Assembly (NCBI GenBank): GCA_023244895.1
Contig: JAHFLL010000001.1
Coordinates: 404,741 to 468,740, forward strand
DNA from: Candidatus Liptonbacteria bacterium
GTDB lineage: Bacteria > Patescibacteriota > Minisyncoccia > UBA6257 > 2-01-FULL-56-20
Length of the DNA stretch: 64,000 nucleotides
Direction of reading: 5' to 3'
This document shows, piece by piece, positions 31,280-56,679 of this stretch. Positions within the stretch are counted from its first letter, which is position 1. Each line of letters begins with the position of its first letter. The notes beneath the pieces were generated by a model. It was not told the origin of the DNA. It did no database searches and saw only the letters and a list, made by a program, of their open reading frames with translations. Both the position numbers and the translations under genes were made by a program.

Positions 31280-31329
31280 GTATTAATTATCCCACTCACA
31301 TAAAAAAGCGCAAATCCTTATTCGCCCAT

Positions 31330-31425
31330 TCCCTCTTCCGCTTTCTAACTTCTACTTCCAACCTCTATCTTCTATATTCTATCTACTAACTTCTACCCTC
31401 CACTATACTTGAGTATAGTACCGGG
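31330..31425. repeat. Pyrimidine-rich (CTTCTAC-type) tract plus inverted copy of the 23-bp palindromic motif (left island edge)
   Basis: On the plus strand the tract contains almost no G. It ends with CCACTATACTTGAGTATAGTACC. This is the reverse complement of the GGTACTATACTACGGTATAGCGG motif at 39842 and 41041. Confidence 0.5.
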
Positions 31426-31575
31426 GATGAGAGAGTGGGAGTTGAGAGAATGAGAGCTGGGGGGTGGGAGTTTTGGGGGGCGGGGTGGGGGTGGGGGTGG
31501 GAGGGAGAAAACGGGTTGGAAAACGCGAGGGGGTTATTTTTGAGATGGGATAAGGGTTGGTGGGGTCAGATATTT
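31426..31575 (+). repeat. G-rich, C-poor tract (GGGGGTGGG repeats), G-quadruplex-capable
   Basis: GGGGGGTGGGAGTTTTGGGGGGCGGGGTGGGGGTGGGGGTGGGAGGGAG and nearby sequence. On the minus strand, transcribed from the upstream operon, this reads as C-rich/G-poor, which is rut-site-like. Confidence 0.5.
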
Positions 31576-31648: not shown

Positions 31649-32404
31649 CTACCCAGTGGTCTTTTTGAGTTCTGGAACAGTCTCTTCGAGCAACGCCTTG
31701 ATTTGATCTGAGTCAAGTGAGGACAATGCGGAATATCCACCCCTGAGATTAAGCCTGCGCATTATCAGACGTACTTTTGCCTCCTTGCTATTCGAAAATA
31801 ATGTTGGATTTCCCACTACAAATTCAAGCACGGCGAATCGTATGGTCTCATTTCTTCCTTGGGCACCAGGCAATAGATGCGTGGTGTAGTCCAACATGGA
31901 AAATACCTCTCGGGTAAGGACGTAGGGATCTTTTGCGTCCTTCGTCTTCGTGAGAGAAACAACCCACCAGAGCCTTGCGATGTCGTTGTTCATCAACGAT
32001 GCGGGACTCATCGGATCGACAAACCAATGATCGAGAATATATTTACCTCGCTTACTTTCCTTCTGGGCGGATACATCCGTCCTCTTTTTCATATAGTCGA
32101 AAAAGTCCACGTGGGTAAGGTATGTCCAAAAGCGCTCATCCGATGCGTCTTCGGGGCTCAGCGCGCTGTACGCTTCGAAAAGTCGTATCGCGGCCTCCGC
32201 AGAATCCCTACTGCCCCCGCCCGGCGGGTTGGGAAATAATATTTTGGACATGGGAACCTTCAGAGACGACTGCACCGTATCGATATCTTCGACGGAGAAA
32301 CTTTCTCCTAAATATTTTTTTACGCCTTTCCCTGTACGCAAATCATCCTTCATTCTAACGAGGGCTGCGGTCGTAAATATCGGTCTGGTGTTTTTTTCTG
32401 GCAT
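31649..32404 (-). CDS. Hypothetical protein, 4th gene of GHKL-ATPase operon
   Basis: 251 aa. Its start lies 1 nt after the upstream stop. No recognisable family (motifs RFWTYLTHV and ILDHWF). Confidence 0.6.
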   Translation of the reverse strand: MPEKNTRPIFTTAALVRMKDDLRTGKGVKKYLGESFSVEDIDTVQSSLKVPMSKILFPNPPGGGSRDSAEAAIRLFEAYSALSPEDASDERFWTYLTHVDFFDYMKKRTDVSAQKESKRGKYILDHWFVDPMSPASLMNNDIARLWWVVSLTKTKDAKDPYVLTREVFSMLDYTTHLLPGAQGRNETIRFAVLEFVVGNPTLFSNSKEAKVRLIMRRLNLRGGYSALSSLDSDQIKALLEETVPELKKTTG

Positions 32405-32405
32405 A

Positions 32406-33257
32406 TCAGGAGAATGTTATTTTATCGACGATATTGTTGAGATCGTTCAGCGAATTGGTGAGGGGGTAGTCGAATATCGCTTGCACCAGCTCGGGGATAT
32501 TTTCCACCGAGACGCCTATGCGGCGCATTCGATCCTCTTTCATCAGGTCGGTCAGTTTCTTGTGCCACTTCCTGTGGTTGTGCGTGGCACTCCTATCTTC
32601 CGACAAAAACTCGCTCATCACCCAAAGCATAGCCGGATATACGTACAGCGATATGAATACTCGTTTCAAATCTTCGCTCTTTTTAATCTTCTTCATATTT
32701 TCGTAATCCTCTTCGGGTAACTTTATGAGGATAGGGTCCGACCCCAATTCGTACTTAACATCTTTCCCTGCATGCTTGTAGAACATGAAAAATGCGCCTT
32801 CCGATCCCGGCGTCTCCCAATCTTTGGTGACCTCGAAAGAATCGCTGCCGCTGTATCCGAGTATTTCACCCTTATGAACCGTGAAAGTTTGCCCATCGAA
32901 GAAATCTGTGGTGTAGGCATTTTTGTATCGCGGTATATCCTGTTTTGCGATAATCAAACACGTCGCCACAACCGTATCTCTGAGATATTTCGAATCTATC
33001 CTTATTTGCCCCGAACCGTCTCCAGGAAGCTCGAAGCCCATTCGATACATCGTCGAGGAACAGGATACGTCGACAAAGAAAACCGCCTTGCCGTCAGTTA
33101 TTAATTTCTCCATAGCTTCGTTATGGAGGACCTGAGAAACGGTCAAGATCGTCTCTTTGGCGATAACGAGTCCAATATGGGTCTCGAACCTACCGACGAT
33201 TTCGCCTCCGTCCTTGCGTAGTATTGGATGCGGCAACGATACAATGTCGAGTTTCAT
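32406..33257 (-). CDS. Hypothetical protein, 3rd gene of operon (possible PD-(D/E)xK-like motif GD...IDSK)
   Basis: 283 aa. ATGA overlap with the GHKL gene. The weak PD-x9-DxK pattern is speculative. Confidence 0.6.
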   Translation of the reverse strand: MKLDIVSLPHPILRKDGGEIVGRFETHIGLVIAKETILTVSQVLHNEAMEKLITDGKAVFFVDVSCSSTMYRMGFELPGDGSGQIRIDSKYLRDTVVATCLIIAKQDIPRYKNAYTTDFFDGQTFTVHKGEILGYSGSDSFEVTKDWETPGSEGAFFMFYKHAGKDVKYELGSDPILIKLPEEDYENMKKIKKSEDLKRVFISLYVYPAMLWVMSEFLSEDRSATHNHRKWHKKLTDLMKEDRMRRIGVSVENIPELVQAIFDYPLTNSLNDLNNIVDKITFS

Positions 33258-35155
33258 CGAGATTTTTTGATTAGTTCAAAAGCGTTGAGCTTCAGGGAAT
33301 ATTTTCCGGATTCCGAAAATTTTACCTTCAGTCTCCTTGCGCCCATTTTATTCAAAACAAGATCACGTATCTCGTTTGCATTGAAGCTGGGCTGATTTTT
33401 AACCGTCTTATCCGCTATGATCGTTTGCAAAACTAACCTCTCGGAAGAATCGTCGCCACCCGCAACTATTTGAACGATGTCTATTTTCTTTCCTGGCTCT
33501 CCCTTGATCTGAATCTGATGAGTCGGATTACTTTCGGAGTCGGAACCCGCAAATGAAAGGAATGCGATACCCGCTAGCGGTCGCGCGTCGTTATTCTTTG
33601 TTTTCGATTTTTTCTTTCCCTTGTTTCTCTTGTCGGCAACTGGAATATATACATCCCCACCTTCCTTCTCGGCGCGTTCTTTGATGCTCAGGATCTTCTT
33701 TTTTACTTTCAGATCCAAATTCCGCATTTCCTCGACGGTCACCTCGTCGCCGTATTCTTTTTGGGTGTATTCTTTTTCTCCGCCCTGCGCTCCAGAACCT
33801 TCGTCGGTATCCATTGCAATAAAATCCTCCAACCCCTCGATAGAAAGATATCGTTCTTCCCGAGAGGTGCTCAGTTTTTGCAACTCCCTTTTGATAAAAT
33901 TCTCCATTTCCAGATACGCCAACTTGGCCTTTTCGCGATTCTCTTGCGTTTTGGCGTTCTCCCATTTCCATTCGTTGTGTTCCTGGTTCTCCATCTCCCT
34001 GAGGAGCGCATTACCATTTTCGTTGTCGCAAATAAAAACCGCGGCATACCGATTCATCGAATTCTTCTTGATGCAGTCCACGACCATGCCGGGTTTCCGG
34101 ATCAAAGCCACCCGGTTGGGATACCCGTCAGCCAGTAAAAGATGCAAGCGAACCTTGCCGAGGTGATCCAATTCGTCCTCTATCGGAGCATCCTTACGAT
34201 AGGCGTAGTAGAGAGGTAGCGGGTTCGGCACATCCGTGTTGCCCCACTCGAAAGGAGCTTTGCTGAAATATTTATGGAGGAGGTGTTCGACGGTATTTTG
34301 ATTGATGGTTTCGTTTTCCTGCACCTTAACGGTAAGCTTGCCCGTAATGATGGGCAGCCAGAAATAGCGGAGGATCGATTGAACCAATTCTGAGGCCCAA
34401 TCGTCCTCACCGATGAAATCGGGGATTAAAAAGTCCGTGCCAGGTCTTATTCGCTTAAACACGCTCGGAAAAAGCTTGGTGAAATTAGTTGGGATGAGAT
34501 CGCGGTCGTGAATCGGCTTTTGATCACCCACGCCGTAGGTACCGTTATTTTGTTTTCGCTTCCCGTCTTCTTCGAACGTGGTAACGATGGTTTTCCCAGC
34601 GAAGGTATAAGAGTTGGCCTCGTCGATACTGGAAATGAAAAGGGAAAGAAAGCCGGACGAGACATAGTAAGCGCCTTTTCCCAGACCGAACGATCCACCG
34701 CTCCCAGACTGTTTATTGCTGAAACCGACGGATTCCGCAAACCGGAACCAGTTCTCTTTTGTCATGCCGACAGTATTGAAATCACTGATCCTGAGAACTT
34801 TGACCGTGGTATTTTTCGAGATTTTACTCGCTCCTTTCTCGAATTCGACTGCCGTATCAATCGCTCCTTTCTCCCTCAAATAAACGGCGCACGCCGAAAG
34901 TATCTTCGCGAGCCGCTCGGCTCCAGGCACGCTTTTGGCGGGCATCGTAACAACGCTGAATTCAGCTTCAACGGGCTTCCCTGAACTCGAATCGTGCGCG
35001 TCCATTATATTTTGGAGGGCCTCTCGGGCGATATAGTAGGAAGGATTACCGCGAAATTCAACCGTGGGCCCAGCATTCGGGCCATCGGCCATACCCCCCC
35101 CGAGATCCCCGAAAATCCATTCAGGCTTATTTGAATCTGTTGAAGTCTTGGGCAT
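33254..35155 (-). CDS. GHKL-superfamily ATPase (Hsp90/MORC/MutL-like Bergerat fold), 2nd gene of operon
   Basis: 633 aa with N-box EALQNIMDA, G1 box DFNTVGMTKE (Hsp90-like DxGxGMTK) and G2 GSGGSFGLGKG. It also has a Lys-rich low-complexity linker and a ~100-aa C-terminal domain. Confidence 0.7.
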   Translation of the reverse strand: MPKTSTDSNKPEWIFGDLGGGMADGPNAGPTVEFRGNPSYYIAREALQNIMDAHDSSSGKPVEAEFSVVTMPAKSVPGAERLAKILSACAVYLREKGAIDTAVEFEKGASKISKNTTVKVLRISDFNTVGMTKENWFRFAESVGFSNKQSGSGGSFGLGKGAYYVSSGFLSLFISSIDEANSYTFAGKTIVTTFEEDGKRKQNNGTYGVGDQKPIHDRDLIPTNFTKLFPSVFKRIRPGTDFLIPDFIGEDDWASELVQSILRYFWLPIITGKLTVKVQENETINQNTVEHLLHKYFSKAPFEWGNTDVPNPLPLYYAYRKDAPIEDELDHLGKVRLHLLLADGYPNRVALIRKPGMVVDCIKKNSMNRYAAVFICDNENGNALLREMENQEHNEWKWENAKTQENREKAKLAYLEMENFIKRELQKLSTSREERYLSIEGLEDFIAMDTDEGSGAQGGEKEYTQKEYGDEVTVEEMRNLDLKVKKKILSIKERAEKEGGDVYIPVADKRNKGKKKSKTKNNDARPLAGIAFLSFAGSDSESNPTHQIQIKGEPGKKIDIVQIVAGGDDSSERLVLQTIIADKTVKNQPSFNANEIRDLVLNKMGARRLKVKFSESGKYSLKLNAFELIKKSR

Positions 35156-37464: not shown

Positions 37465-38475
37465 TTATCTTGCTTTATGGGATAGCTCAAATAACTTGTC
37501 CTTTATGCTTTCAAACTGGGCTCTAGTAATTGGATATGGTGTACCCCCGCCATGATTGAAAGAGTTTGAAAATGGCTCGCTGAATTCTCCCTGTTTCCCA
37601 AATTTCAGCTCAATATCCTTCTTGGACTTTTTCTTTATCTCAAAATCAACAAAGTGAGGCCAGTGCCGGTTATTTATTTCCAGGGTCCTTCTCTGATCTT
37701 CAAAAAATGTCCCCCTGTGGTTGTCGAGCGCCATATAATACGGTTCGACAATACTGCAAATGTAGTATCTGTAAATAGTTATCTCCGTCTTAGGGTTTTT
37801 GGGCATAGCCATACTATTCCCGGCCTTACCGAATATAAAAAGTATCTTGTCGCCTTTCTGCATATCCAGAATATGCGGCAATGCTTTTGCATGCTGTCGG
37901 AATGCCCAGAACGGCTTAGAGGGCTTACTCTTGAGCATCCTATCAAAGTTCTTCACCGCAGGGCCATTGGCTCCTCCTTTTAAGAATACGACCCAATATT
38001 GACTCTTGCTTGAAAGATTCTTGCTCTCGGCCTGATAAATTAGAGACTCCCGCGAGAGCCGAGAAATATTTTCCGCGACCCAATCGGCAAAATCATCATG
38101 GTCAATGGCTACAACGTCTATCCCCTCATATGTCTTTAAATCAGTCTCCCCAAGGACAACAACAAAACCATCTTTTTCTTTTATATATCTTTTCTGATTG
38201 TCTTTCTTAAAATCGGTTAAATGCCATTTGACCTCTACCGGTATGCCGTTCTGCCGTTTTTTAAAAAAGATCTCCAGGTCGGCTCGATAACGAGCTTCTG
38301 TCTTGGACCCTTCGGGTACAATAAGATTTATCTGATCTTTTTGGAGTCTTTCCGGAAGCAATTTTCTCCTCTGGCCAGAATCACCAAAATAATATCTTTC
38401 GAAAAGATAACGGTGGATCAGCTTTTCGTTAAAGGCATTTCGGTTGATCTTTTTGAAGATATCCAGTCCGCTCAT
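37465..38475 (-). CDS. Putative type II restriction endonuclease (N-terminal PD-(D/E)xK: RADLEIF...PVEVKW)
   Basis: 336 aa, located immediately upstream of dcm on the same strand. It has a D-x12-EVK motif. This is an inference. Confidence 0.5.
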   Translation of the reverse strand: MSGLDIFKKINRNAFNEKLIHRYLFERYYFGDSGQRRKLLPERLQKDQINLIVPEGSKTEARYRADLEIFFKKRQNGIPVEVKWHLTDFKKDNQKRYIKEKDGFVVVLGETDLKTYEGIDVVAIDHDDFADWVAENISRLSRESLIYQAESKNLSSKSQYWVVFLKGGANGPAVKNFDRMLKSKPSKPFWAFRQHAKALPHILDMQKGDKILFIFGKAGNSMAMPKNPKTEITIYRYYICSIVEPYYMALDNHRGTFFEDQRRTLEINNRHWPHFVDFEIKKKSKKDIELKFGKQGEFSEPFSNSFNHGGGTPYPITRAQFESIKDKLFELSHKAR

Positions 38476-38610
38476 TAAAATCTCTTATGTTTTTTATGAC
38501 CTACCCCTTCTTCCAATCCCTGATGGTGAATCCGCCGGGGGGAAGTTTTGGGCTCTTATTTACCTTAAATAATATGCCCCTCTTTTGGCTTTAGCAAGAA
38601 TAAAATTCAA

Positions 38611-38694
38611 GGCAGTAAGTAGATAGTAGCAAGTAGTAGGTAGAAGGCGGAGTATATAAAAAAGAACCAGCCCCGGACGCGCGTCGCGCCGGGG
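38611..38694. repeat. Composite repeat copy 1: C-depleted GTAG/TAGAAG tract + 48-bp terminator module (GCGGAGTATATAA..CCCCGGACGCGCGTCGCGCCGGGG)
   Basis: 47 of 48 bp match 39974..40021. On the minus strand this is a hairpin plus T-run terminating the PNP gene. Confidence 0.55.
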
Positions 38695-38726
38695 CCGGAA
38701 TAGAATCCGTCTGACTTCTCCGCCAC

Positions 38727-39614
38727 TTACGCCGCTTCGCTCCGGCGGTAGAGCTCGAAGAACCTGAGGAAGATCTTGGCGACACGCCGGCGGACCGGCG
38801 GGCTCTTCAAGACCCTCACGACCTCCTCGTGATTGGTCGCGTTTGTGCCATCCTTCTTGGTTGTATTGGACACGATGGAAACGGCGAGCGTGCGCAGACC
38901 GCGATTGGTCGCGACGATCACTTCGGGCGCGGTAGACATGCCCATCGCGTCCCCGCCCAGAATCCGAATCGCACGGACCTCCGCGGGGGTCTCGTAGGTC
39001 CGTCCGGTCTGGACGAAGAGCACGCCCCTGTGGACACGCCGAGACTCTCGCACGATTGCGGCCGCGCGGTGGAACATACTGCGCAGCTTCAGGTCGTACG
39101 TGCCGACCTTGGGGTACATGGGCTGGAAGTACCAGTTGCTCCCAAAGTCCAAATGCGGTCCGAGAAGCGGGTTGGGCATCGCGAGAGCGATGTGGTCCGT
39201 GACCACCATCAGATCTCCGACCTTGTAGGACATGTTCGCCGCGCCGACTGCGTTGGTCGACATGTAGATCTGGACACCGAGCTCCGCCATCACCTGGACG
39301 GCGAGGGTAACCCACCACATCGCCCGCGGGTCGGGAGCGGCGTTGTAGTAGTGCTCCCGGCCGGACAAGGCGAAAACGGGCACGCCAGCGATGGTCCCGT
39401 AGATCAGCTCGCCCTTGTGCCCCGGAGCGCTCACGCCCGGGAAACCGGGAATCAGCCGATACGGGATCACAACCTCCTTCACCATCTGCTCGGCGAGGTC
39501 GTCCATCCCCGAGCCTAGCGTGAGCGAAATCTTGGGCATGGGGCCATTCACCCTGCTCCGGATGTAGGCTGCCGCCGCCCGAACCTTGGCCACGTAGACT
39601 TTCGGCGAGATCAT
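38727..39614 (-). CDS. Purine nucleoside phosphorylase (PunA/MTAP family), GC-rich foreign cassette
   Basis: 295 aa with GSGMDDLAE, SGREHYY and MGMSTAPEVIVA...NHEEV. A strong SD (GGGAGG) lies upstream. The gene is markedly GC-richer than the genome. Confidence 0.8.
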   Translation of the reverse strand: MISPKVYVAKVRAAAAYIRSRVNGPMPKISLTLGSGMDDLAEQMVKEVVIPYRLIPGFPGVSAPGHKGELIYGTIAGVPVFALSGREHYYNAAPDPRAMWWVTLAVQVMAELGVQIYMSTNAVGAANMSYKVGDLMVVTDHIALAMPNPLLGPHLDFGSNWYFQPMYPKVGTYDLKLRSMFHRAAAIVRESRRVHRGVLFVQTGRTYETPAEVRAIRILGGDAMGMSTAPEVIVATNRGLRTLAVSIVSNTTKKDGTNATNHEEVVRVLKSPPVRRRVAKIFLRFFELYRRSEAA

Positions 39615-39837
39615 CTCTCAGTCCCTCCCTGTTATGCCTCACGGAATAATATCAAAACCGTTTCGGATAGCTCCTCGCGGCTCATCACATCATTATGCAG
39701 TCAGGTATAAAAATCAATGTAGTAAGCGAAAGTAGAGGCTAGTAGCTAGAAGGTAGTAGGTAGCGAGCAAAATGAACCTAAACGGGAAAACACTGCTCAT
39801 CTCTCACTAACCCTATCTCCCCCAACTCACACCCCCG

Positions 39838-40021
39838 TGGTGGGTACTATACTACGGTATAGCGGAGGATAGTAGGTAGAATATATAAGGTAGAAGTTGG
39901 AAGATGGGAAGTGGTAGGTAAAAAGCGAGGGGTAGAAGTTAGAAGATAGAAGTTGGAAGGTAGAAAGTAGAATGCGGAGTATATAAGAAAGAACCAGCCC
40001 CGGACGCGCGTCGCGCCGGGG
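39838..40021. repeat. Composite repeat copy 2: 23-bp palindromic motif + C-depleted purine tract + 48-bp terminator module
   Basis: GGTACTATACTACGGTATAGCGG, then about 100 nt with almost no C (GGTAGAAGTTAGAAGATAGAAG...), then the terminator module for the lipoprotein gene. Confidence 0.55.
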
Positions 40022-40041
40022 CGGTCAATCTCATCATCCTA

Positions 40042-40746
40042 CTAGTCATAGAAGCGCGTCACCGGGGAGTAGTGCTCCCGGATGAAGGCGTTGAAGCAGG
40101 GACCTTCCTTCTGGCCACAGGCAAGCCAGCCTCTATACATAGTGGCACCGACCGGGTCCAGGTTGCGGCCCGCCCTCACTAGAGCAGAGACGGTATAGCG
40201 GCAGGTCCTGTCCCATGCGGTGACCTCGGAGGCGATCAGCGCCTCCTTACCGTCCACGTTGTCACAGCCACTCGCAAGATGCTCCAGCTCGTGGAGAAGA
40301 CCGATCACGATCGAGACTTCGAAGGTCTGCGGCGTGACCTTTCCGCTTCGATAGAACTGTAGCTGGGCCGGTACGAAGATCCGGAGCACGGGATTGCCAC
40401 CCCGAGCATCGCAACCGGCCAAGACGTCTCTGGAGCGGTTATTGAAGGACGTGCTGGCCTCGATGGCGAACACCTTGCCGTAGCGCTCAGCGCTCCGCCT
40501 GGAGAGCTCCAGATAACGGTTGTTGATGTCCGAAACCGAATACCTGGCCCGGAGCACCTCCTCCATCACGGTCCGGTTGAAGTGGGAGTCCCAGAACGCG
40601 TGGAGCTCCTCGTCCGAGAACTTGCGCTCCACCCTCTCCGCCACGGTGGGGGTGGGTTCATTCTTCTTGTCTATGGGGCAACCAAGAACCAGAAGAATGG
40701 TCGTCAGAAACAGGATGCGCGCCGTTCTTCCGCGTCGCATGGACAC
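40042..40746 (-). CDS. Lipoprotein with HExxH zinc-metallopeptidase motif, GC-rich cassette
   Basis: Signal peptide with lipobox LVLGC, HELEH motif, and an SD (AGGGGAGG) before a GTG/ATG start. Confidence 0.55.
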   Translation of the reverse strand: MSMRRGRTARILFLTTILLVLGCPIDKKNEPTPTVAERVERKFSDEELHAFWDSHFNRTVMEEVLRARYSVSDINNRYLELSRRSAERYGKVFAIEASTSFNNRSRDVLAGCDARGGNPVLRIFVPAQLQFYRSGKVTPQTFEVSIVIGLLHELEHLASGCDNVDGKEALIASEVTAWDRTCRYTVSALVRAGRNLDPVGATMYRGWLACGQKEGPCFNAFIREHYSPVTRFYD

Positions 40747-40895
40747 AGGTTGCCTCCCCTATTGTTTTGCCGTCATTGCGGCGATGGTAAACGAACCGAC
40801 CATATAATACAATTTTTCATGTAAAACACAAGATAACCCTCTTTCATTAATTATCTAGCCCCTCACGTCCCCAGCTTGACTAGGACATAGCACCA

Positions 40896-41064
40896 GGTAA
40901 CAAGTAGTGGCTAGTAATTAGTATTGAATAACGGTGAGTTAGAAGACGGTGGTTGGTAGTTAGAACGTGGAAAGTGGAACGTAGAACTACTGCCACTACT
41001 ACAATCATAATTCCGCTTACTCATCCATCAACCCCCACAGTGGGCACTATACTACGGTATAGTT
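40896..41064. repeat. Third copy of purine-rich tract + 23-bp palindromic motif (GTGGGCACTATACTACGGTATAG)
   Basis: Same orientation as the copy at 39842, and upstream of the plus-strand gene 41153. Confidence 0.45.
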
Positions 41065-41152
41065 ATCCACAGATAGGCATTGACGCACAGACTGGACGGC
41101 TATAGTTTTAAATCAGCCCCCGAAACGTTAACCTCTTTCAAGGAGCAGTGTC

Positions 41153-41392
41153 ATGGGTAGCAACAACACGCCACGGTACGAGGAAGACACTCGGCAGGTC
41201 TCCTCGGCCACCAGTGCGGCGGGCATGGCAGCGGCAGTCATGATTGCCGGGCCGTTCGCAGCGCTGTTCGTCGATCCGAACGACAAGTGGGAGCACACCA
41301 TCACCGATACCCAGACTGGTAACCAGGTTGTGGGTACCGGGAGCACCCCGCAAGAAGCTCGCGACGAAGCCCTGGGCAACATGCGTCGCTAA
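41153..41392 (+). CDS. Small hypothetical protein (79 aa), GC-rich
   Basis: AAGGAG sits 7 nt upstream of the ATG. No recognised family. Confidence 0.45.
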   Translation: MGSNNTPRYEEDTRQVSSATSAAGMAAAVMIAGPFAALFVDPNDKWEHTITDTQTGNQVVGTGSTPQEARDEALGNMRR

Positions 41393-41564
41393 TCGTTTAG
41401 CGAACATCCAGCCCGGATATAAAAAGAGGTACAGACACAAAAGTAAGGCAAGAAAGGGGCAAAATAGCCCGCCGCAATTAGCGGAAAATCCACAAGGCGC
41501 ATATTACGCGCGAGCCCCGGCTATTGCTAACGCACCCGGGGTTTTTGAATATTAAAATCAACAC

Positions 41565-41612
41565 AAAAAGCGAGACCCCGGACGCAGCACGATGCTGGCC
41601 GGGGCCCGAACT
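41565..41612 (-). terminator. GC hairpin terminator related to the CCCCGG..CCGGGG module
   Basis: Minus-strand GGGCCCCGGCCAGCA..TGCTGCGTCCGGGG followed by a T-rich run, located after the zinc-ribbon gene. Confidence 0.35.
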
Positions 41613-41631
41613 CTTCTCCACGCACAGAACG

Positions 41632-41895
41632 CTATTGCGGAGGCCAGATGGACTCGTCCTCGCAGACGGGACACTCGTAGCGATCTCCTCGCCTGGCCGA
41701 CTCTGGCAACTGCTTGTCGCAATTGGGGCAGACCGGTACCAAAACAGTGTCCTCGTTGGCGGGCAGTCGGCAACATTGCGGGCAGTAGCCCGCAACCTTG
41801 CCGTTTCGATCTTCTACCCTCTCCAGCAACCCTCCGCACGCCTTGTGCGCGGACCACCACTCTGTCGGCTTCAAGGCGATCGCCAGAACGCTCAT
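41632..41895 (-). CDS. Zinc-ribbon mini-protein (CPQCC...CPNC...CPVC)
   Basis: 87 aa with a strong SD (GGGAGGAG) and three CxxC pairs. Confidence 0.5.
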   Translation of the reverse strand: MSVLAIALKPTEWWSAHKACGGLLERVEDRNGKVAGYCPQCCRLPANEDTVLVPVCPNCDKQLPESARRGDRYECPVCEDESIWPPQ

Positions 41896-41908
41896 CCGAT
41901 TCTCCTCC

Positions 41909-42118
41909 CTAGCACCTGGTGCAGGATGTCACGGTGCAGTAGGTCTTGGATTCCGGTCCGCCGCTTCTGCGAGCGCTGTCGTTGCAGCCCTCGCAGACCA
42001 GGGCGTTTCCACCCCGGACCAGACCCGCGCCATTGCAGTGCGAGCACTTCTCGCCCTTCTTCCCGCCGCTCCCTCGGCAGAAGGAGCAATTCATGACCGG
42101 GACGTCTCCGAGCGCCAT
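41909..42118 (-). CDS. DnaJ-type zinc-finger mini-protein (CxxCxGxG repeats)
   Basis: Start taken at MALGDV with the SD GGGGGA. Motifs CSFCRGSGG, CSHCNGAG and CEGCN. Confidence 0.45.
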   Translation of the reverse strand: MALGDVPVMNCSFCRGSGGKKGEKCSHCNGAGLVRGGNALVCEGCNDSARRSGGPESKTYCTVTSCTRC

Positions 42119-42200
42119 GATGTCCCCCAATCCAGACACGGGATGTGTCTGCTGGAGATAGATTTTGATACAACCAGAAACAAAGTCAACGCCCAAGCGG

Positions 42201-43688
42201 TTAAAGCTCTCCCAAATCCAAGGTCTGGTCTATTCTTATTTTTTGCACAAAGTCCGGCACGTGGCTGACTAATATCATCGCGCCCTCGTAGCGATGTAAG
42301 GCTTCCGCTATAACCGGGATGTGGCGAAAGTTGATGTGATTAGTGGGTTCGTCCAAAATCAATAAACCCGGATGCTGTAAAGTAATTGCCGCAAAAGCAA
42401 CCAGGCCCTTTTGCCCTTCGGACAGAGCTCCTATCTTAGTTTTTAAAATATTGGCGTCCAATAAAAAGCCCGCCGCGTGAGAACGCAAAGACTCTATCGT
42501 CCCGCCCCGCACCACATCTTTTAGAGCGTCGTAAACGGTCTGCTCAAAATCCAGGGTGGAAAAATCCTGACGATAATACCCAACTCGAATCCCCTCCTGT
42601 ATATGCTCTCCCTTGGCGTGACCACTCGCGAGTTTTTCCAAGAGGGTTGTCTTGCCGATACCATTCGGTCCGGCAAGCAAGAGATGCTCTTTCTTTTTGA
42701 GGTCAATCTTAACTTTCTTTACGACCGGCTTGTGGTCTCTAATAACCGAGACCGAAGAAAGGCTCAAAATAACTCCGGTAATATCTTCCTGGCAGGGAAT
42801 GAAAAATTTACGAATAGTTTTATCTTCCTGACGTCCCTCCACCATATCGCCTTCCAGCTCCACTATTTTCTCATTCATCTTACGCGCCACGTCACGCATA
42901 TGCCCTCCCTTCTGAGCGAAAAAGTTGGCCTGCTCTTTACGGTGCGCGATATCTTTTTCCAGGCGCACATTTTTCATTCTTTCTCTCTCCAGGCGCGCCT
43001 TAATTTCTTCCACCACCGCCAGATAGTTGCCGGGGTACTGCTCCACCTTGCGGGTAAAGCTGTCCAAATAAAGCACTCCATGCGTAAAAGCATTCAAAAA
43101 ATCGGCGTCGTGCGAAATAACAATACAGGTTTTTTTATAATCAATTAGAAACTGGGTTAAGTGCGCGATGCCCTGCTTGTCCAAATTGTTGGTCGGCTCG
43201 TCGAGCAACAGAATATCCGAATCCTGAATCAACGCCTGGGCCAAGAGAATTCTGGCTTGCTGGCCTCCGGAAAAGGTCTTGAGCGCGCGCGTGAGCGGAG
43301 CGGAAAGATGCACCGCTTCCAAAACCTTTTTTACCCTGGGCTCAATATCATAAATCTTTTTAGGGAAGGCGCGCTCAAAAAATTCCAAAACGGAAAGTTC
43401 CAGTTCGCTCCGCGCGATAACCTGGCGGGCGGTCGCAATGCTTAAGCCCTTTTCCACTATCACGTCTCCCTCCTCCGGGGGAAGTTCTCCGGTGATAAGC
43501 TTAAAGATGGTGCTTTTGCCCGCACCATTCTGACCCATTAAAGTAACTTTCGCGCCACGACGCACGGAAAAGCTGGCGCCCGATAGGATTGGCTTTTGAT
43601 GTCCAAACTCAAAAACCACCTCATTGAAGCGAATAATCACCTCGCCGTGGACCGGCTTGGTCTCGATTGTAGCGGAAACTGGTTTCAT
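42201..43688 (-). CDS. ABC-F family ATPase (tandem ABC domains, EttA/Uup-like)
   Basis: 495 aa with two Walker A/signature/Walker B sets and no TM domain. Confidence 0.85.
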   Translation of the reverse strand: MKPVSATIETKPVHGEVIIRFNEVVFEFGHQKPILSGASFSVRRGAKVTLMGQNGAGKSTIFKLITGELPPEEGDVIVEKGLSIATARQVIARSELELSVLEFFERAFPKKIYDIEPRVKKVLEAVHLSAPLTRALKTFSGGQQARILLAQALIQDSDILLLDEPTNNLDKQGIAHLTQFLIDYKKTCIVISHDADFLNAFTHGVLYLDSFTRKVEQYPGNYLAVVEEIKARLERERMKNVRLEKDIAHRKEQANFFAQKGGHMRDVARKMNEKIVELEGDMVEGRQEDKTIRKFFIPCQEDITGVILSLSSVSVIRDHKPVVKKVKIDLKKKEHLLLAGPNGIGKTTLLEKLASGHAKGEHIQEGIRVGYYRQDFSTLDFEQTVYDALKDVVRGGTIESLRSHAAGFLLDANILKTKIGALSEGQKGLVAFAAITLQHPGLLILDEPTNHINFRHIPVIAEALHRYEGAMILVSHVPDFVQKIRIDQTLDLGEL

Positions 43689-48317: not shown

Positions 48318-48410
48318 CGCTCTCCTCCCCTGGCTACCACTTTCTACTTTGCACATTCCACCTTCTGTCTTCTAACTTCTACCCGCTACTTACTACCTAC
48401 TGTCCTATCA
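48318..48410. repeat. G-depleted (CTAC/CTTCTA) tract in divergent promoter region
   Basis: Plus strand reads CCACTTTCTACTTTGCACATTCCACCTTCTGTCTTCTAACTTCTACCCGCTACTTACTACCTACTG. Same family as the other GTAG tracts. Confidence 0.4.
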
Positions 48411-48425
48411 TGTATAATGCTTTTC

Positions 48426-54565: not shown

Positions 54566-54858
54566 ATGGATGAGCCAATTATAAATCCAATTCACAAAAA
54601 ATATCCACAGACCGGGAAGTTTGACAGCTTTCTAAAACGGGCAGAATATTAACCTCGCACATTAGAAATATTTTAGGAATCTGGGGAAGCGGGTGTAAAT
54701 CCCGCACAGTGCCGCTACGGTGATCTCGATAATCTTATCGGGAAAGTCCGACTACCAGTCCTAGAACCTTTTGTGTTCCTCGAGCAAGGAACAAACTGAT
54801 TTTGTCCAATCAGGATCCCCTTGCTCTAGCGGGATTTTTTAGTTCCGCGCAGAACAAA

Positions 54859-56679
54859 ATGTTTAAAAAAATAATCGGCGTGCTTGCGGGCGGAGTAGTC
54901 GTGGCAGTCTTGGCAATTCCCTCTCTCTCGCGGGGAGATATAAATAAATCGGTCGCATATCTGGAGTCAAAATCTCTTAGCGCCTGGAGTGTTATGGCCT
55001 TAGTCTCGGCGGGCAAGAACCCAAGCACGGATTCCTTGAAGAGCATAAGCGCAACCCAAGCCATAGACTTGGAGGCACCGATACTCGCTCTCACCGCGGC
55101 AGGCAAAGATCCACGCAGCTTCTCCACCGAGAATCTGGTTACTAAATTAAAAAATTATTACGACGGGACCCAATTAGGCAGTGCATCTATTCTAAACGAC
55201 GACATATTTGGACTTCTGGCCCTCAAAAGCTCCGGCGAGAGCGATTCGGATACTACCGTTTCCGGAACCAAGGCCCTTATACTTTCCAAACAGAATTCGG
55301 ATGGCGGATGGAGCTACGCGATTGGCGGAGCGAGCGATACGAATACGACCGCGGCGGGCATTATGGCGCTTATTTCCGCCGGGCAGAACAAAGAGAGCGC
55401 TCCAATTACAAATGGTCTTAATTATCTTAAATCCGCCCAAAATATAGATGGTGGCTTCCCTTATGACCCTAAAAGCGCTTGGGGCACGGATTCGGATGCC
55501 TCTTCGGATGCCTGGGTCATAATGGCTTTACGTTCGGTGGGCATAGATCCCGCAACCATAACCAAGGACGGTAAGTCCGCCCTTACGCATCTCGCGACCC
55601 TTTCCACAGAAGAAGGATATTATCGCTATCAAGCCGGCAGTTCGGAAGATTCTTTTAGTCCAACCACTACTTCTTACGCGGTTATCGCTCTCTCCGGCAA
55701 ATATCTCCCAGTCGGAACAATCGCTCCCCCGCCCGCAAGCAAAGCTGGATTCAGCTATCGCATTGAAGGCGCAAGTGGCCAGCTTTGCGCCGGAGAGGCA
55801 GATGGATTAACCGCGCTTGACGCGGTCGTTATCGCGAGCGAGGCCTGCAACATTACCTACCATATGACTCAGATGAGCTTCGGGGATTACGTGGATGCCA
55901 TCGGCGGAGAAACCGCTTTCGGCACAAATGGCTGGATGTATCTGGTAGACAATCAAAAGCCAAGCGTGGGCGCGGGAGATTACAAGCTATCCGCGAACGA
56001 TGAGGTGCTCTGGTACTACGGAGACTATGCCTGGCAACCGCTTCGCCTATCGCTTAATTCCACCAGCACCACCGGCTCAACCCTAACCGGCAAGTTGGAA
56101 TACTTTGATGGCACAAATTGGAAATACTCCGAGGGTGCGACCATAAAAGCGAATGATAAGACTGCTACGACCGGAATAGATGGAACATTTTCTCTAACTC
56201 TATCTAATGGAGCTTACAAAGTGTTTGGCGAGAAGAATGGCTTTATCCACAGCAATCGTTCCAATTTTAACGTCGGCACCGCCAGCCAGAGCTCTTTGGA
56301 TCTAACTGTAGATCTGGGTTCTGGAGGTAATAGCAGTTCCAACCCCGACCCGACTCAGGAAATATCTTTTTCCGTCCAGACCGAAAATTCTCTTAAAAAA
56401 TTTAATTTCGGTAAGAAAAGTAACGGAGCCCTTCCTGTCCAGAAAGCGACTCTGACCAATTTAAGCGCGAGCCCAACTCACTTTGAGAGCAGTGTCTCGG
56501 GCGATGAGGTCTTCCGAAATTATTTGAATCTAGACGGCAAAACGTGGCGGATGTTCGGAGTAAATCTCGCGCCGGGCGGGGCCAAACAAACCGAGATATC
56601 TCTCAAGCTTCCTTCCGGGCATACCGGTACGGGCGTACGCAATGGGTCGCTAATATTCTGGGCCACACCCGCTCTCTAA
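54859..56679 (+). CDS. Secreted protein with prenyltransferase/terpene-cyclase-like alpha/alpha-toroid repeats and C-terminal beta-sandwich
   Basis: Signal peptide, then repeated GGW...A.G..AL units and a C-terminal domain (GIDGTFSLTLSNGAYKV) resembling the carboxypeptidase regulatory domain. Confidence 0.5.
   Translation: MFKKIIGVLAGGVVVAVLAIPSLSRGDINKSVAYLESKSLSAWSVMALVSAGKNPSTDSLKSISATQAIDLEAPILALTAAGKDPRSFSTENLVTKLKNYYDGTQLGSASILNDDIFGLLALKSSGESDSDTTVSGTKALILSKQNSDGGWSYAIGGASDTNTTAAGIMALISAGQNKESAPITNGLNYLKSAQNIDGGFPYDPKSAWGTDSDASSDAWVIMALRSVGIDPATITKDGKSALTHLATLSTEEGYYRYQAGSSEDSFSPTTTSYAVIALSGKYLPVGTIAPPPASKAGFSYRIEGASGQLCAGEADGLTALDAVVIASEACNITYHMTQMSFGDYVDAIGGETAFGTNGWMYLVDNQKPSVGAGDYKLSANDEVLWYYGDYAWQPLRLSLNSTSTTGSTLTGKLEYFDGTNWKYSEGATIKANDKTATTGIDGTFSLTLSNGAYKVFGEKNGFIHSNRSNFNVGTASQSSLDLTVDLGSGGNSSSNPDPTQEISFSVQTENSLKKFNFGKKSNGALPVQKATLTNLSASPTHFESSVSGDEVFRNYLNLDGKTWRMFGVNLAPGGAKQTEISLKLPSGHTGTGVRNGSLIFWATPAL

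Follow-up and report, generated by a model that had tools for sequence, protein, structure and literature searches.

The 64,000-nucleotide stretch of a Candidatus Liptonbacteria genome analysed here (the window) carries a gene for a purine nucleoside phosphorylase (PNP) that is far GC-richer than the genes around it. We consider it probable that this gene encodes a canonical salvage enzyme, that it was acquired by horizontal gene transfer (HGT) from a GC-richer donor before the lineage split from a relative in the Rifle aquifer, and that it has been kept by selection since, within a plasticity zone. The evidence lies in the family, active site and fold of the enzyme and in the composition, synteny and selection of its gene.

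The 295-residue product consists of a single domain that matches Pfam PNP_UDP_1 (E = 2e-33) and is assigned to the PNPH-PUNA-XAPA family. It passes the cut-offs of NCBIfam NF006054 (239.4 bits versus 218) and of TIGR01697, the inosine/guanosine/xanthosine phosphorylase family (216.1 bits versus 197.1), and its residues 9-271 align to positions 6-258 of the 274-position PunA model. An earlier note on this DNA had described a full-length PNP of PunA/MTAP type. The length, the motifs quoted there and the PunA part of that label hold; the methylthioadenosine phosphorylase (MTAP) part falls away, with a score on TIGR01694 of 57.6 bits against a cut-off of 274.85, and scores of 20-36 bits on the other MTAP and methylthioinosine phosphorylase (MTIP) models, whose cut-offs are 223-453. 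The best sequence matches in the PDB are PNPs, with E of 1e-51 to 1e-35.

We aligned the protein by BLASTP to human PNP, using a reference sequence identical to PDB 1PF7/1ULA. The canonical phosphate- and purine-binding residues, which the earlier note had proposed to check, all align. The phosphate-binding residues are S35, R86, H88 and S227 (human Ser33, Arg84, His86 and Ser220), the ribose contacts are Y90, M226 and H262 (Tyr88, Met219 and His257), and the base contacts are E208 and N250 (Glu201 and Asn243). H66, N121 and A122 further pair with His64, Asn115 and Ala116, and human Phe200 and Val217 are substituted by Tyr and Met, respectively. An AlphaFold2 model made with 25 sequences has a mean local confidence (pLDDT) of 91 and a predicted TM-score (pTM) of 0.91. 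When it was compared with the PDB by Foldseek, the best 50 matches listed were all PNPs, among them those of P. gingivalis, B. fragilis, human and cattle; the lowest E was 1e-29 and the highest target-normalised TM-score 0.92.

Judged by these sequence and model comparisons, the enzyme is a canonical PNP of the homotrimer type (PunA/PNP-I), with the trimeric assembly predicted. It would convert inosine or guanosine, or their deoxy forms, together with phosphate into hypoxanthine or guanine and (deoxy)ribose-1-phosphate, and the reverse. Asn243 and Glu201 determine 6-oxopurine (inosine/guanosine) specificity in the PNP family. Since the window enzyme retains Asn243, adenosine from the nearby AhcY and PfkB genes would first need deamination; those genes, which the PNP had been proposed to complement, are indeed close by, and the link to them is a loose one.

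The GC shift is as strong as had been noted. The gene has a GC content of 0.634 and a GC content at third codon positions (GC3) of 0.845, giving z = 4.7 and 6.2 against a host baseline of the 58 other open reading frames (ORFs) of the window (GC 0.471, standard deviation 0.035; GC3 0.518, standard deviation 0.053), among which the highest GC3 is 0.642. It is not a shift of the PNP only, as had been supposed: the shifted tract runs for about 3.5 kb (approximately 38.65-42.2 kb) and includes four further ORFs with GC3 of 0.74-0.78 (z of 4.2-5.0). Composition changes abruptly at the stop codon of an ABC-F gene on one side and after the PNP terminator on the other. Thus the host-deviating composition expected of a horizontally acquired island is found for the PNP and for its four neighbours. 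The amino-acid composition is GC-shifted as well, with a Gly+Ala+Arg+Pro share of 0.33 in the window PNP versus 0.23-0.27 in low-GC homologues, which suggests long residence in a GC-rich genome. Of the 30 related loci that we compared, 29 have a PNP gene that matches its own contig in composition to within 0.057; the cluster of PNPs at 90% identity to that of the window is alone in being shifted, by 10-16 points across its loci.

A relative from the Rifle aquifer (contig L001) provides a means of dating the transfer. There, too, the shifted PNP lies downstream of ABC-F and MgsA genes, and its product is 90% identical in amino-acid sequence to that of the window; DNA identity is 88% for PNP, 86% for ABC-F and 80% for MgsA. 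The ratio of nonsynonymous to synonymous divergence (dN/dS) for PNP between the two is 0.13, and the gene is therefore under purifying selection. We compared the four-fold degenerate sites of the window and L001, scoring each base as S (G or C) or W (A or T), and fitted a two-state model in which the host equilibrium was taken from ABC-F, while the ancestral GC content at these sites (GC4) and the decay factor were both left free. ABC-F has 110 SS, 39 WW and 54 discordant sites, for a GC4 of 0.675 and a per-lineage decay factor of 0.628; the 152 PNP sites comprise 113 SS, 6 WW and 33 discordant, for a GC4 of 0.852. For PNP the fitted values are 0.954 for the ancestral GC4 (bootstrap 0.89-1.0) and 0.635 for the decay factor (0.49-0.76), which equals the host value of 0.628. 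The simplest reading is a single acquisition before the lineages split, from a donor whose silent sites were close to saturated with GC, followed by parallel neutral amelioration; it is in this sense that we infer the timing and direction of the transfer.

We picture the following course. The PNP would have been gained horizontally, before the split from the Rifle relative, from a much GC-richer donor with a PNP of the type found in Candidate Phyla Radiation (CPR) bacteria and DPANN archaea and a GC4 of about 0.95. Since then, purifying selection would have retained the protein while the synonymous sites drifted toward host composition. The enzyme would supply a CPR bacterium of small genome with purine bases and pentose phosphate; this host is Paceibacterota-like, and a cluster at 90% identity to its BipA bears the name Candidatus Paceibacterota. 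The PNP gene sits in a recombination-prone zone between ABC-F and a defence island, among other reshuffled GC-rich cassettes.

The homologues place the enzyme among those of CPR and DPANN organisms. The closest proteins form the 90%-identity cluster, which comes from Rifle and other groundwater metagenomes. Beyond this cluster identity drops to 55% (Candidatus Giovannonibacteria) and then to 45-52%; the names found at 45-55% are Patescibacteria, Nanoarchaeota and Woesearchaeota only, and every named protein in the best 120 matches is from a CPR bacterium or a DPANN archaeon. In a neighbour-joining (NJ) tree the CPR/DPANN PNPs stand apart from those of Bacillus, Enterococcus, Bacteroidales, Chloroflexia, Acidobacteriota and human, and the window PNP is on a long branch. 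The earlier note had considered a salvage gene acquired from a high-GC host organism and had suggested comparison with actinobacterial homologues. Salvage and HGT are both upheld, by the canonical enzyme, the purifying selection, the composition and the variable context; the suggested source is not, as the M. tuberculosis and Cellulomonas PNP structures are the weakest of the trimeric matches (E of 1e-20 to 1e-22, versus 1e-51 for the best). Phage origin was likewise rejected: no viral-contig relatives were found for the PNP, for a 234-residue protein encoded beside it or for a 435-residue protein of a related locus (L123), nor was there a PHROGs match, and the hairpin CCAGCCCCGGACGCGCGTCGCGCCGGGGC that follows the PNP gene has no exact match in viral contigs.

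The donor was probably another CPR-like organism, and high-GC donors of a suitable type plausibly exist in principle. Contigs L124 (68% GC, GC3 about 0.92) and L125 (60% GC) belong to a single lineage of bacteria whose native PNP, 47-49% identical to the window PNP, falls in the CPR/DPANN clade. The L125 QueA is 48% identical to that of the window, versus 39% for three other CPR loci, and the lineage may represent a relative of Patescibacteria with high GC and serve as a model of the type of donor. On three other long contigs (L120-L122, one of them named Patescibacteria), a PNP with 46-47% identity to ours is encoded directly after guaA or guaB, in a salvage operon with phosphoribosyltransferases, a cytidylate kinase-like gene, purA and NrdR/ribonucleotide reductase. 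When genome collections were scanned with the alignment, only distant PunA genes, with at most 45% identity in the best segment, appeared among the at least 600 matches listed. On a 1.7-kb metagenome contig (L116, positions 1-470), a C-terminal piece of PNP with normal GC (residues 219-291, 56% identity) adjoins an internal piece of ABC-F in inverted orientation (residues 158-226, 77% identity); this could reflect an inversion between linked ABC-F and PNP genes in a more distant relative, or an assembly chimera.

Several points weigh against the acquisition that we propose. No donor was found: outside the 90% cluster, identity reaches no more than 55%, and the gene of that nearest protein has a GC3 of 0.625. 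In bootstrapped NJ analysis the sister of the window PNP is P0004 in 50% of replicates and a high-GC clade in about 22%; no sister group settled with or without Dayhoff-6 recoding, and the grouping with high-GC sequences could be compositional attraction. The spacers between the GC-rich ORFs are host-like, three having a GC content of 0.44-0.47 and the fourth 0.52, and they contain host-type repeats, with CT-rich repeats in two of them that recur elsewhere in the window; one simple block transfer does not predict this. The substrate specificity is one deduced from residues, and statements on PNP copy number and on partner enzymes (phosphoribosyltransferase, phosphopentomutase, deaminase) apply to the 64-kb window of a genome of about 840 kb. 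Finally, models of amelioration and of maintained GC3 fit the 152 four-fold sites equally well.

Maintained GC3 remains the main rival. By this account the PNP gene is native or has been resident for long, and what actively keeps its GC3 high is selection on codon usage or mRNA structure, or GC-biased gene conversion in a recombination hotspot, and not descent from a GC-rich donor. The same GC3 (0.845 and 0.847) is indeed seen in two lineages 0.44 apart in synonymous divergence (dS), the table of four-fold sites is fitted equally well by a stationary and by a decay model, the locus is clearly recombinogenic, and the spacers are host-like. We nevertheless judge it unlikely. Strong/weak turnover would have to be about 2.1 times faster than in the flanking ABC-F gene, and gene conversion should have enriched the spacers too, three of the four of which are at the low values just given. 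Nor does maintenance sit well with the GC-shifted amino-acid composition and long branch of the protein, or with the fact that several unrelated neighbour ORFs, mostly without annotated function, share the shift. The outside relatives of these neighbours are distant (40-42% identity for the 234-residue protein, 39% for a desaturase in L001), and host genes in the window never rise above a GC3 of 0.64.

The gene is free-standing, as had been stated, with its own Shine-Dalgarno sequence and with terminators on both sides (Table 1). The 234-residue protein gene upstream ends in the same terminator as the PNP; thus the PNP appears monocistronic, and the description 'stand-alone' is apt. The AT-rich conserved leader is probably its promoter, to go by the hexamer-like motifs and their conservation: the block of DNA that is 88% identical to L001 and L119 (another contig with this locus) ends exactly at 39717, the edge of the -35-like motif. 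A consensus promoter scan did not flag this site, and a permissive Rfam scan of 38450-42300 returned one chance-level match only, with no riboswitch or known RNA in the PNP leader or the spacers.

The terminator hairpin lies about 30 nt past the PNP stop codon and is followed by UGGUUCUUUUUU; a 96-nt segment containing it folds with z = -3.1. The terminator module and the palindromic motif that the earlier note had seen flanking the gene are confirmed, each in two copies where essentially none would be expected by chance. The 29-nt hairpin CCAGCCCCGGACGCGCGTCGCGCCGGGGC occurs exactly twice (38667-38695 and 39994-40022; none expected), each copy just 3' of a GC-rich gene. Between the two copies of the module (family D2) the hairpin is 100% identical and a 63-nt core 93.7% identical. 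The 17-nt palindrome ACTATACTACGGTATAG is found at 39846 and 41046 (0.03 expected), within the two copies of repeat D10. Copy 1 of D10 is embedded in an intergenic CT-rich/palindrome/G-rich element, and it is not conserved upstream of the PNP in L001. That element is dispersed; it consists of a CT-rich 'CTTCTAC' tract, a 6-4-6 palindrome (CTATAC-NNNN-GTATAG) and a G-rich tract, and the copies that we located occupy spacers that separate modules of the variable region. It may act as a promoter, an operator or a substrate for recombination. Its long hairpin is significant at 31300-31530 (z = -3.5) and not at 39770-39990, next to the PNP (z = -0.5).

Table 1. Positions of the PNP gene, its signals and repeats, the genes of the variable locus, and related features (window coordinates unless a contig is named)
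Feature	Coordinates	Strand	Remarks
PNP coding sequence	38727..39614	-	295 aa; trimeric PunA/PNP-I type 6-oxopurine nucleoside phosphorylase by family, residue and fold evidence
PNP 5' region	39615..39717	-	103 nt, AT-rich, conserved with Rifle relatives; contains Shine-Dalgarno, -35-like and -10-like sequences
Shine-Dalgarno GGGAGGG of PNP	39623-39629	-	8 nt before ATG
-35-like TTGATT	39712-39717	-	upstream of PNP
-10-like CATAAT	39692-39697	-	upstream of PNP
PNP intrinsic terminator	38653..38695	-	11-bp GC hairpin GCCCCGG-CGCG-ACG-CGCG-U-CCGGGGC, then U tract
Terminator module (family D2), copy 1	38609..38695	.	87 nt; 83% identical to 39936-40022
Terminator module (family D2), copy 2	39936..40022	.	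3' of 234-aa gene, upstream of PNP; fold z = -6.1
Palindromic motif CTATAC-CGTA-GTATAG and flanks (repeat D10, copy 1)	39831..39862	.	about 220 nt upstream of PNP start
Palindromic motif (repeat D10, copy 2)	41031..41062	.	upstream of 234-aa gene
Dispersed intergenic element, window	31310-31530; 39780-39990; 41031-41062; 48330-48420		CT-rich tract only at 48330-48420
Dispersed intergenic element, L119	5345-5419; 8444-8577; 15605-15764		
234-aa putative lipoprotein with HExxH	40042..40746	-	GC-rich cassette; GC3 0.783
79-aa ORF	41153..41392	+	GC-rich; AAGGAG Shine-Dalgarno; gene call also in an independent annotation
Type B terminator hairpin	41560..41607	-	CCCCGG-CCAGC-loop-GCUG-CCGGGG and U tract; 3' of 87-aa ORF
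87-aa zinc-ribbon ORF	41632..41895	-	GC-rich
ORF of up to 95 aa, DnaJ-like CxxCxGxG zinc-finger repeats	41909..42196	-	GC-rich; abuts ABC-F stop; upstream edge of GC-rich block
ABC-F type ATPase	42201..43688	-	conserved host flank and clock reference; 96.6% protein and 86% DNA identity to L001; dS = 0.79
Non-coding junction	38502..38611	.	about 110 nt; downstream edge of GC-rich block; 92% identity to L123, 90% to L001
Candidate defence genes PADLOC PDC-M33 A/B/C	31649-35155	-	E = 1e-90, 1e-44, 8e-36; C protein is Pfam DUF6339
Native PNP in L124 and L125	7001-7864 and 7597-8481		between QueA-SET-HhH_GPD and DinB-LexA

The GC-rich tract differs between strains, and a comparison of three variants of the locus shows how. 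In the window the order is ABC-F, the ORFs of 95, 87, 79 and 234 codons, PNP, the junction and then restriction-modification (R-M) genes. Contigs L001, L002, L088 and L119 share a second order, which begins with ABC-F, a 269-aa ORF, a 62-aa ORF, DUF2103, a GC-rich desaturase and a 95-aa ORF, goes on with DUF3160, Memo, a GC-rich 191-aa ORF and PNP, and closes with 296- and 146-aa ORFs, the junction, T5orf172 and an R-M system of RadC and methylase. The third variant, L123 (1-4485), has a 191-aa-like ORF, ORFs of 435, 62, 235 and 96 aa, the junction and RadC, and no PNP; it thus carries homologues of the 234-, 191-, 62- and 95-aa cassettes together with a new GC-rich 435-aa ORF. Gene content accordingly varies between a conserved ABC-F flank and conserved junction sequences, as is expected of an island, with the PNP itself absent from L123. 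Cassettes that are common to the variants show widely varying divergence, at 60% to 90% amino-acid identity. Homology with L001 ends at 42196. The counterparts of the junction are at 3650-3756 in L123 and 12879-12919 in L001, and it stands immediately upstream of different genes in each case (the 336-aa ORF in the window, RadC in L123, T5orf172 in L001); its being shared before three different genes suggests an exchange of modules at conserved linkers.

Among the neighbours of the PNP, the 234-residue protein has no match in Pfam, NCBIfam, PADLOC, PHROGs or the PDB. Its family, which has no name, comprises about 239 representative clusters; H152, E153 and H156 are nearly invariant there, and Glu, Trp and Cys residues are conserved as well. 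The N-terminus of the protein (LVLGC) resembles a lipobox, and it may be a secreted zinc peptidase-like protein. An 83%-identical homologue occurs in L123, in a different context. As to the ORF that abuts ABC-F, its real start may be an internal ATG at 42118 with a GGGGGA ribosome-binding site, and one independent annotation has no gene call for it. The desaturase cassette of L001 (3990-4901, minus strand) encodes a fatty-acid (delta-9-like) desaturase, an unusual gene for a CPR bacterium, and ends in a type A hairpin like that of the window PNP; no relative exceeds 39% identity, and the named matches are scattered, among Thermoplasmatota and Solirubrobacterales.

Nearly all GC-rich ORFs have a hairpin at their end, which belongs to one or the other of two related types (CCCCGG...CCGGGG stem and U tract). 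The type B hairpin after the 87-aa ORF is related to those found after the 191-aa ORF and after PNP in L001. The PNP itself is followed by type A in the window and type B in L001, with the break in homology at the stop codon, and in L123 the type B copy known from behind the L001 PNP stands behind the 96-aa gene. The hairpins, by this sequence comparison, move independently of the ORFs.

These facts raise the question of whether the PNP could be one cassette in an integron-like system of site-specific capture, in which the GC-rich genes are the cassettes and the hairpins the recombination sites. The related GC-rich hairpin at the end of each GC-rich ORF, the variation of cassette order and content among three variants at one locus and the changes of partner between hairpin and gene just described would all fit. 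We find such capture quite unlikely, though. Neither the 64-kb window nor the related loci contain a tyrosine recombinase or any other integrase. The hairpins are short, near-perfect and U-tracted and, read in the sequence, have none of the RYYYAAC/GTTRRRY cores of attC sites. The cassettes possess their own ribosome-binding sites and AT-rich upstream regions, and some are oppositely oriented (the 79-aa ORF in the window, the desaturase in L001). No dedicated enzyme is needed to explain the pattern, for which homologous recombination at conserved junctions and at repeats of 40-110 nt suffices. No integrase or transposase is present among the annotated ORFs of the window and related loci, and no tRNA in the window; with hairpins that lack attC cores, we therefore read the plasticity zone as one reshuffled by homologous recombination, which would act at the repeated non-coding modules.

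A bolder proposal is that CPR bacteria have a dedicated, integrase-free cassette-exchange array between ABC-F and the defence island. Foreign GC-rich single genes, including the PNP, would be placed between host-type promoter/linker modules and a family of GC-rich hairpin terminators, and these cassettes would be gained, lost and reordered among strains through recombination at the repeated modules. We regard this as unlikely; if true, such an array would be a new route by which streamlined symbionts sample genes.

A different objection is that the GC-rich segment is an artefact of assembly or binning, in which foreign DNA was joined to a CPR contig. The abrupt changes of composition at the ABC-F stop codon and past the PNP terminator might suggest this, and repeated hairpins could mislead assemblers; the Logan contig L004 in fact breaks at both hairpins. 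However, a 60.7-kb ENA assembly record that was deposited separately has these junctions with 100% identity, and an 840.7-kb contig at NCBI is recorded with the same proteins. Moreover, L001, L002 and L119, from three samples of which two are labelled Rifle groundwater, have the flank, the GC-rich genes, the PNP and the low-GC genes in order, with L001 extending to ABC-F and L119 to the R-M genes. Host-type repeats interleave with the GC-rich ORFs, and the PNP has diverged in step with the flanking host gene. We regard a chimeric contig as very unlikely and give an artefact next to no credence.

The last alternative concerns defence. The earlier note had placed the gene inside a defence island, which is true of one flank, where PDC-M33, Vsr, endonuclease-like and Dcm genes occupy 31.6-38.5 kb. 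After PDC-M33 come, as far as 38475 on the minus strand, Vsr, a 175-aa type II restriction endonuclease-like protein (PDLC03205, 1e-60), a Dcm methylase and the unannotated 336-aa ORF, which may be the cognate endonuclease. PNP-fold domains act as ATP nucleosidase effectors in CBASS, Detocs, Avs and prokaryotic Argonaute (pAgo) systems; they make up a clade of their own, apart from the DeoD, XapA, Udp and MtnN clades of housekeeping enzymes, and occur either inside defence operons or as fusions with sensor or receiver domains (bioRxiv 10.1101/2023.01.24.525353).

The existence of such effectors, and the R-M genes that adjoin the PNP both in the window and in the Rifle relatives (though the R-M systems differ), could suggest that our PNP is a defence or nucleotide-depletion effector like the Cap17 and DtcC ATP nucleosidases, or an accessory of the adjacent R-M or PDC-M33 genes. 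We think this highly unlikely. The window PNP is a single domain, with no sensor or signalling module (SLOG/TPALS, receiver, NLR, pAgo, CD-NTase) either fused to it or in an operon with it; its place in PNPH-PUNA-XAPA is outside the defensive clade, an assignment made through the family and the clade names of that paper rather than through Cap17 or DtcC sequences. Every residue for phosphorolysis is retained. The protein matches no PADLOC model at E <= 0.01 and nothing in PHROGs, and terminators on both sides isolate its gene from the HExxH lipoprotein and the unannotated 336-aa ORF. More distant homologues reside in salvage operons or beside DinB-LexA, with no recurring defence context, and the L123 variant has the junction and the RadC gene, yet no PNP. 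The earlier suggestion of a defence or NTP-depletion component is thus not supported, on the very grounds its author had named, an intact salvage site and, for more distant homologues, no defence association.

Elsewhere in the window, an adenosylcobalamin (AdoCbl) riboswitch (Rfam RF01482) lies at 54658-54801 on the plus strand, with 51.2 bits against a gathering score of 50. It is directly upstream of a 625-aa protein (54802-56679) that contains DUF4430 and repeats like those of squalene-hopene cyclase (SQHop_cyclase); this is plausibly a surface or uptake protein under B12 control.

To our knowledge CPR bacteria are described as being without known nucleotide biosynthesis pathways, and a nucleoside phosphorylase is therefore central to their economy. 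The PNP locus indicates that DNA gained by horizontal transfer, in a variable region, can carry a core salvage function that selection preserves for a long time. It is also a small, clean case for timing how a foreign gene ameliorates, with a flanking host gene as the clock. It adds no new defence mechanism; what residual novelty it has lies in GC-rich, terminator-bounded cassettes that vary among strains at one locus.

Among known enzymes, the window PNP resembles the trimeric PNPs (human, bovine, Bacillus PunA type, XapA) in being a full-length single domain with their fold and all of their phosphate, ribose and base contacts. It differs in falling within a CPR/DPANN subclade that has signatures of its own: a 4-residue insertion after R-x-H-x-Y, an F-Q-P motif in the 150s loop, and DGTNATNHEEV. 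Within that clade its GC content and Gly/Ala/Arg/Pro content are unusually high. The CPR salvage-operon PNPs of L120-L122 are of the same clade and the same length and presumably catalyse the same reaction, whereas the window gene is outside any salvage operon, apparently monocistronic, compositionally foreign and situated in a variable region. With Cap17 of CBASS and DtcC of Detocs it has in common the superfamily fold (Pfam PF01048) and the nearness of defence genes, but those ATP/dATP nucleosidases form a different clade, with the MtnN PNP domain as outgroup, whereas the window PNP is PunA/XapA-like.

As for the locus, the minimal mobile elements of Neisseria exchange cassettes by homologous recombination at conserved linkers, and integron arrays are their site-specific counterpart. 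The likeness to the former lies in conserved flanks and short conserved non-coding linkers around strain-variable single-gene cassettes; the repeat units here, though, are ordinary intrinsic terminators and the CT-rich/palindrome element, and the mechanism is one that we propose by comparison. From integron arrays the window locus differs in having neither an integrase nor attC cores. The closest parallel in setting comes from aquifer CPR genomes, where genomic islands, numbering in the hundreds, and HGT, mostly within Patescibacteria, have been reported as common, with R-M and nucleotide-metabolism genes among the transferred material (PMC12455944). Like those islands, ours is a compositionally deviant block, in the genome of a groundwater member of Patescibacteria, beside R-M genes that carries a nucleotide-metabolism gene; unlike them, it is without a mobility gene and is a mosaic of single-gene units with host-like spacers, and the transfer, which would predate a split of dS of about 0.8, is still visible.

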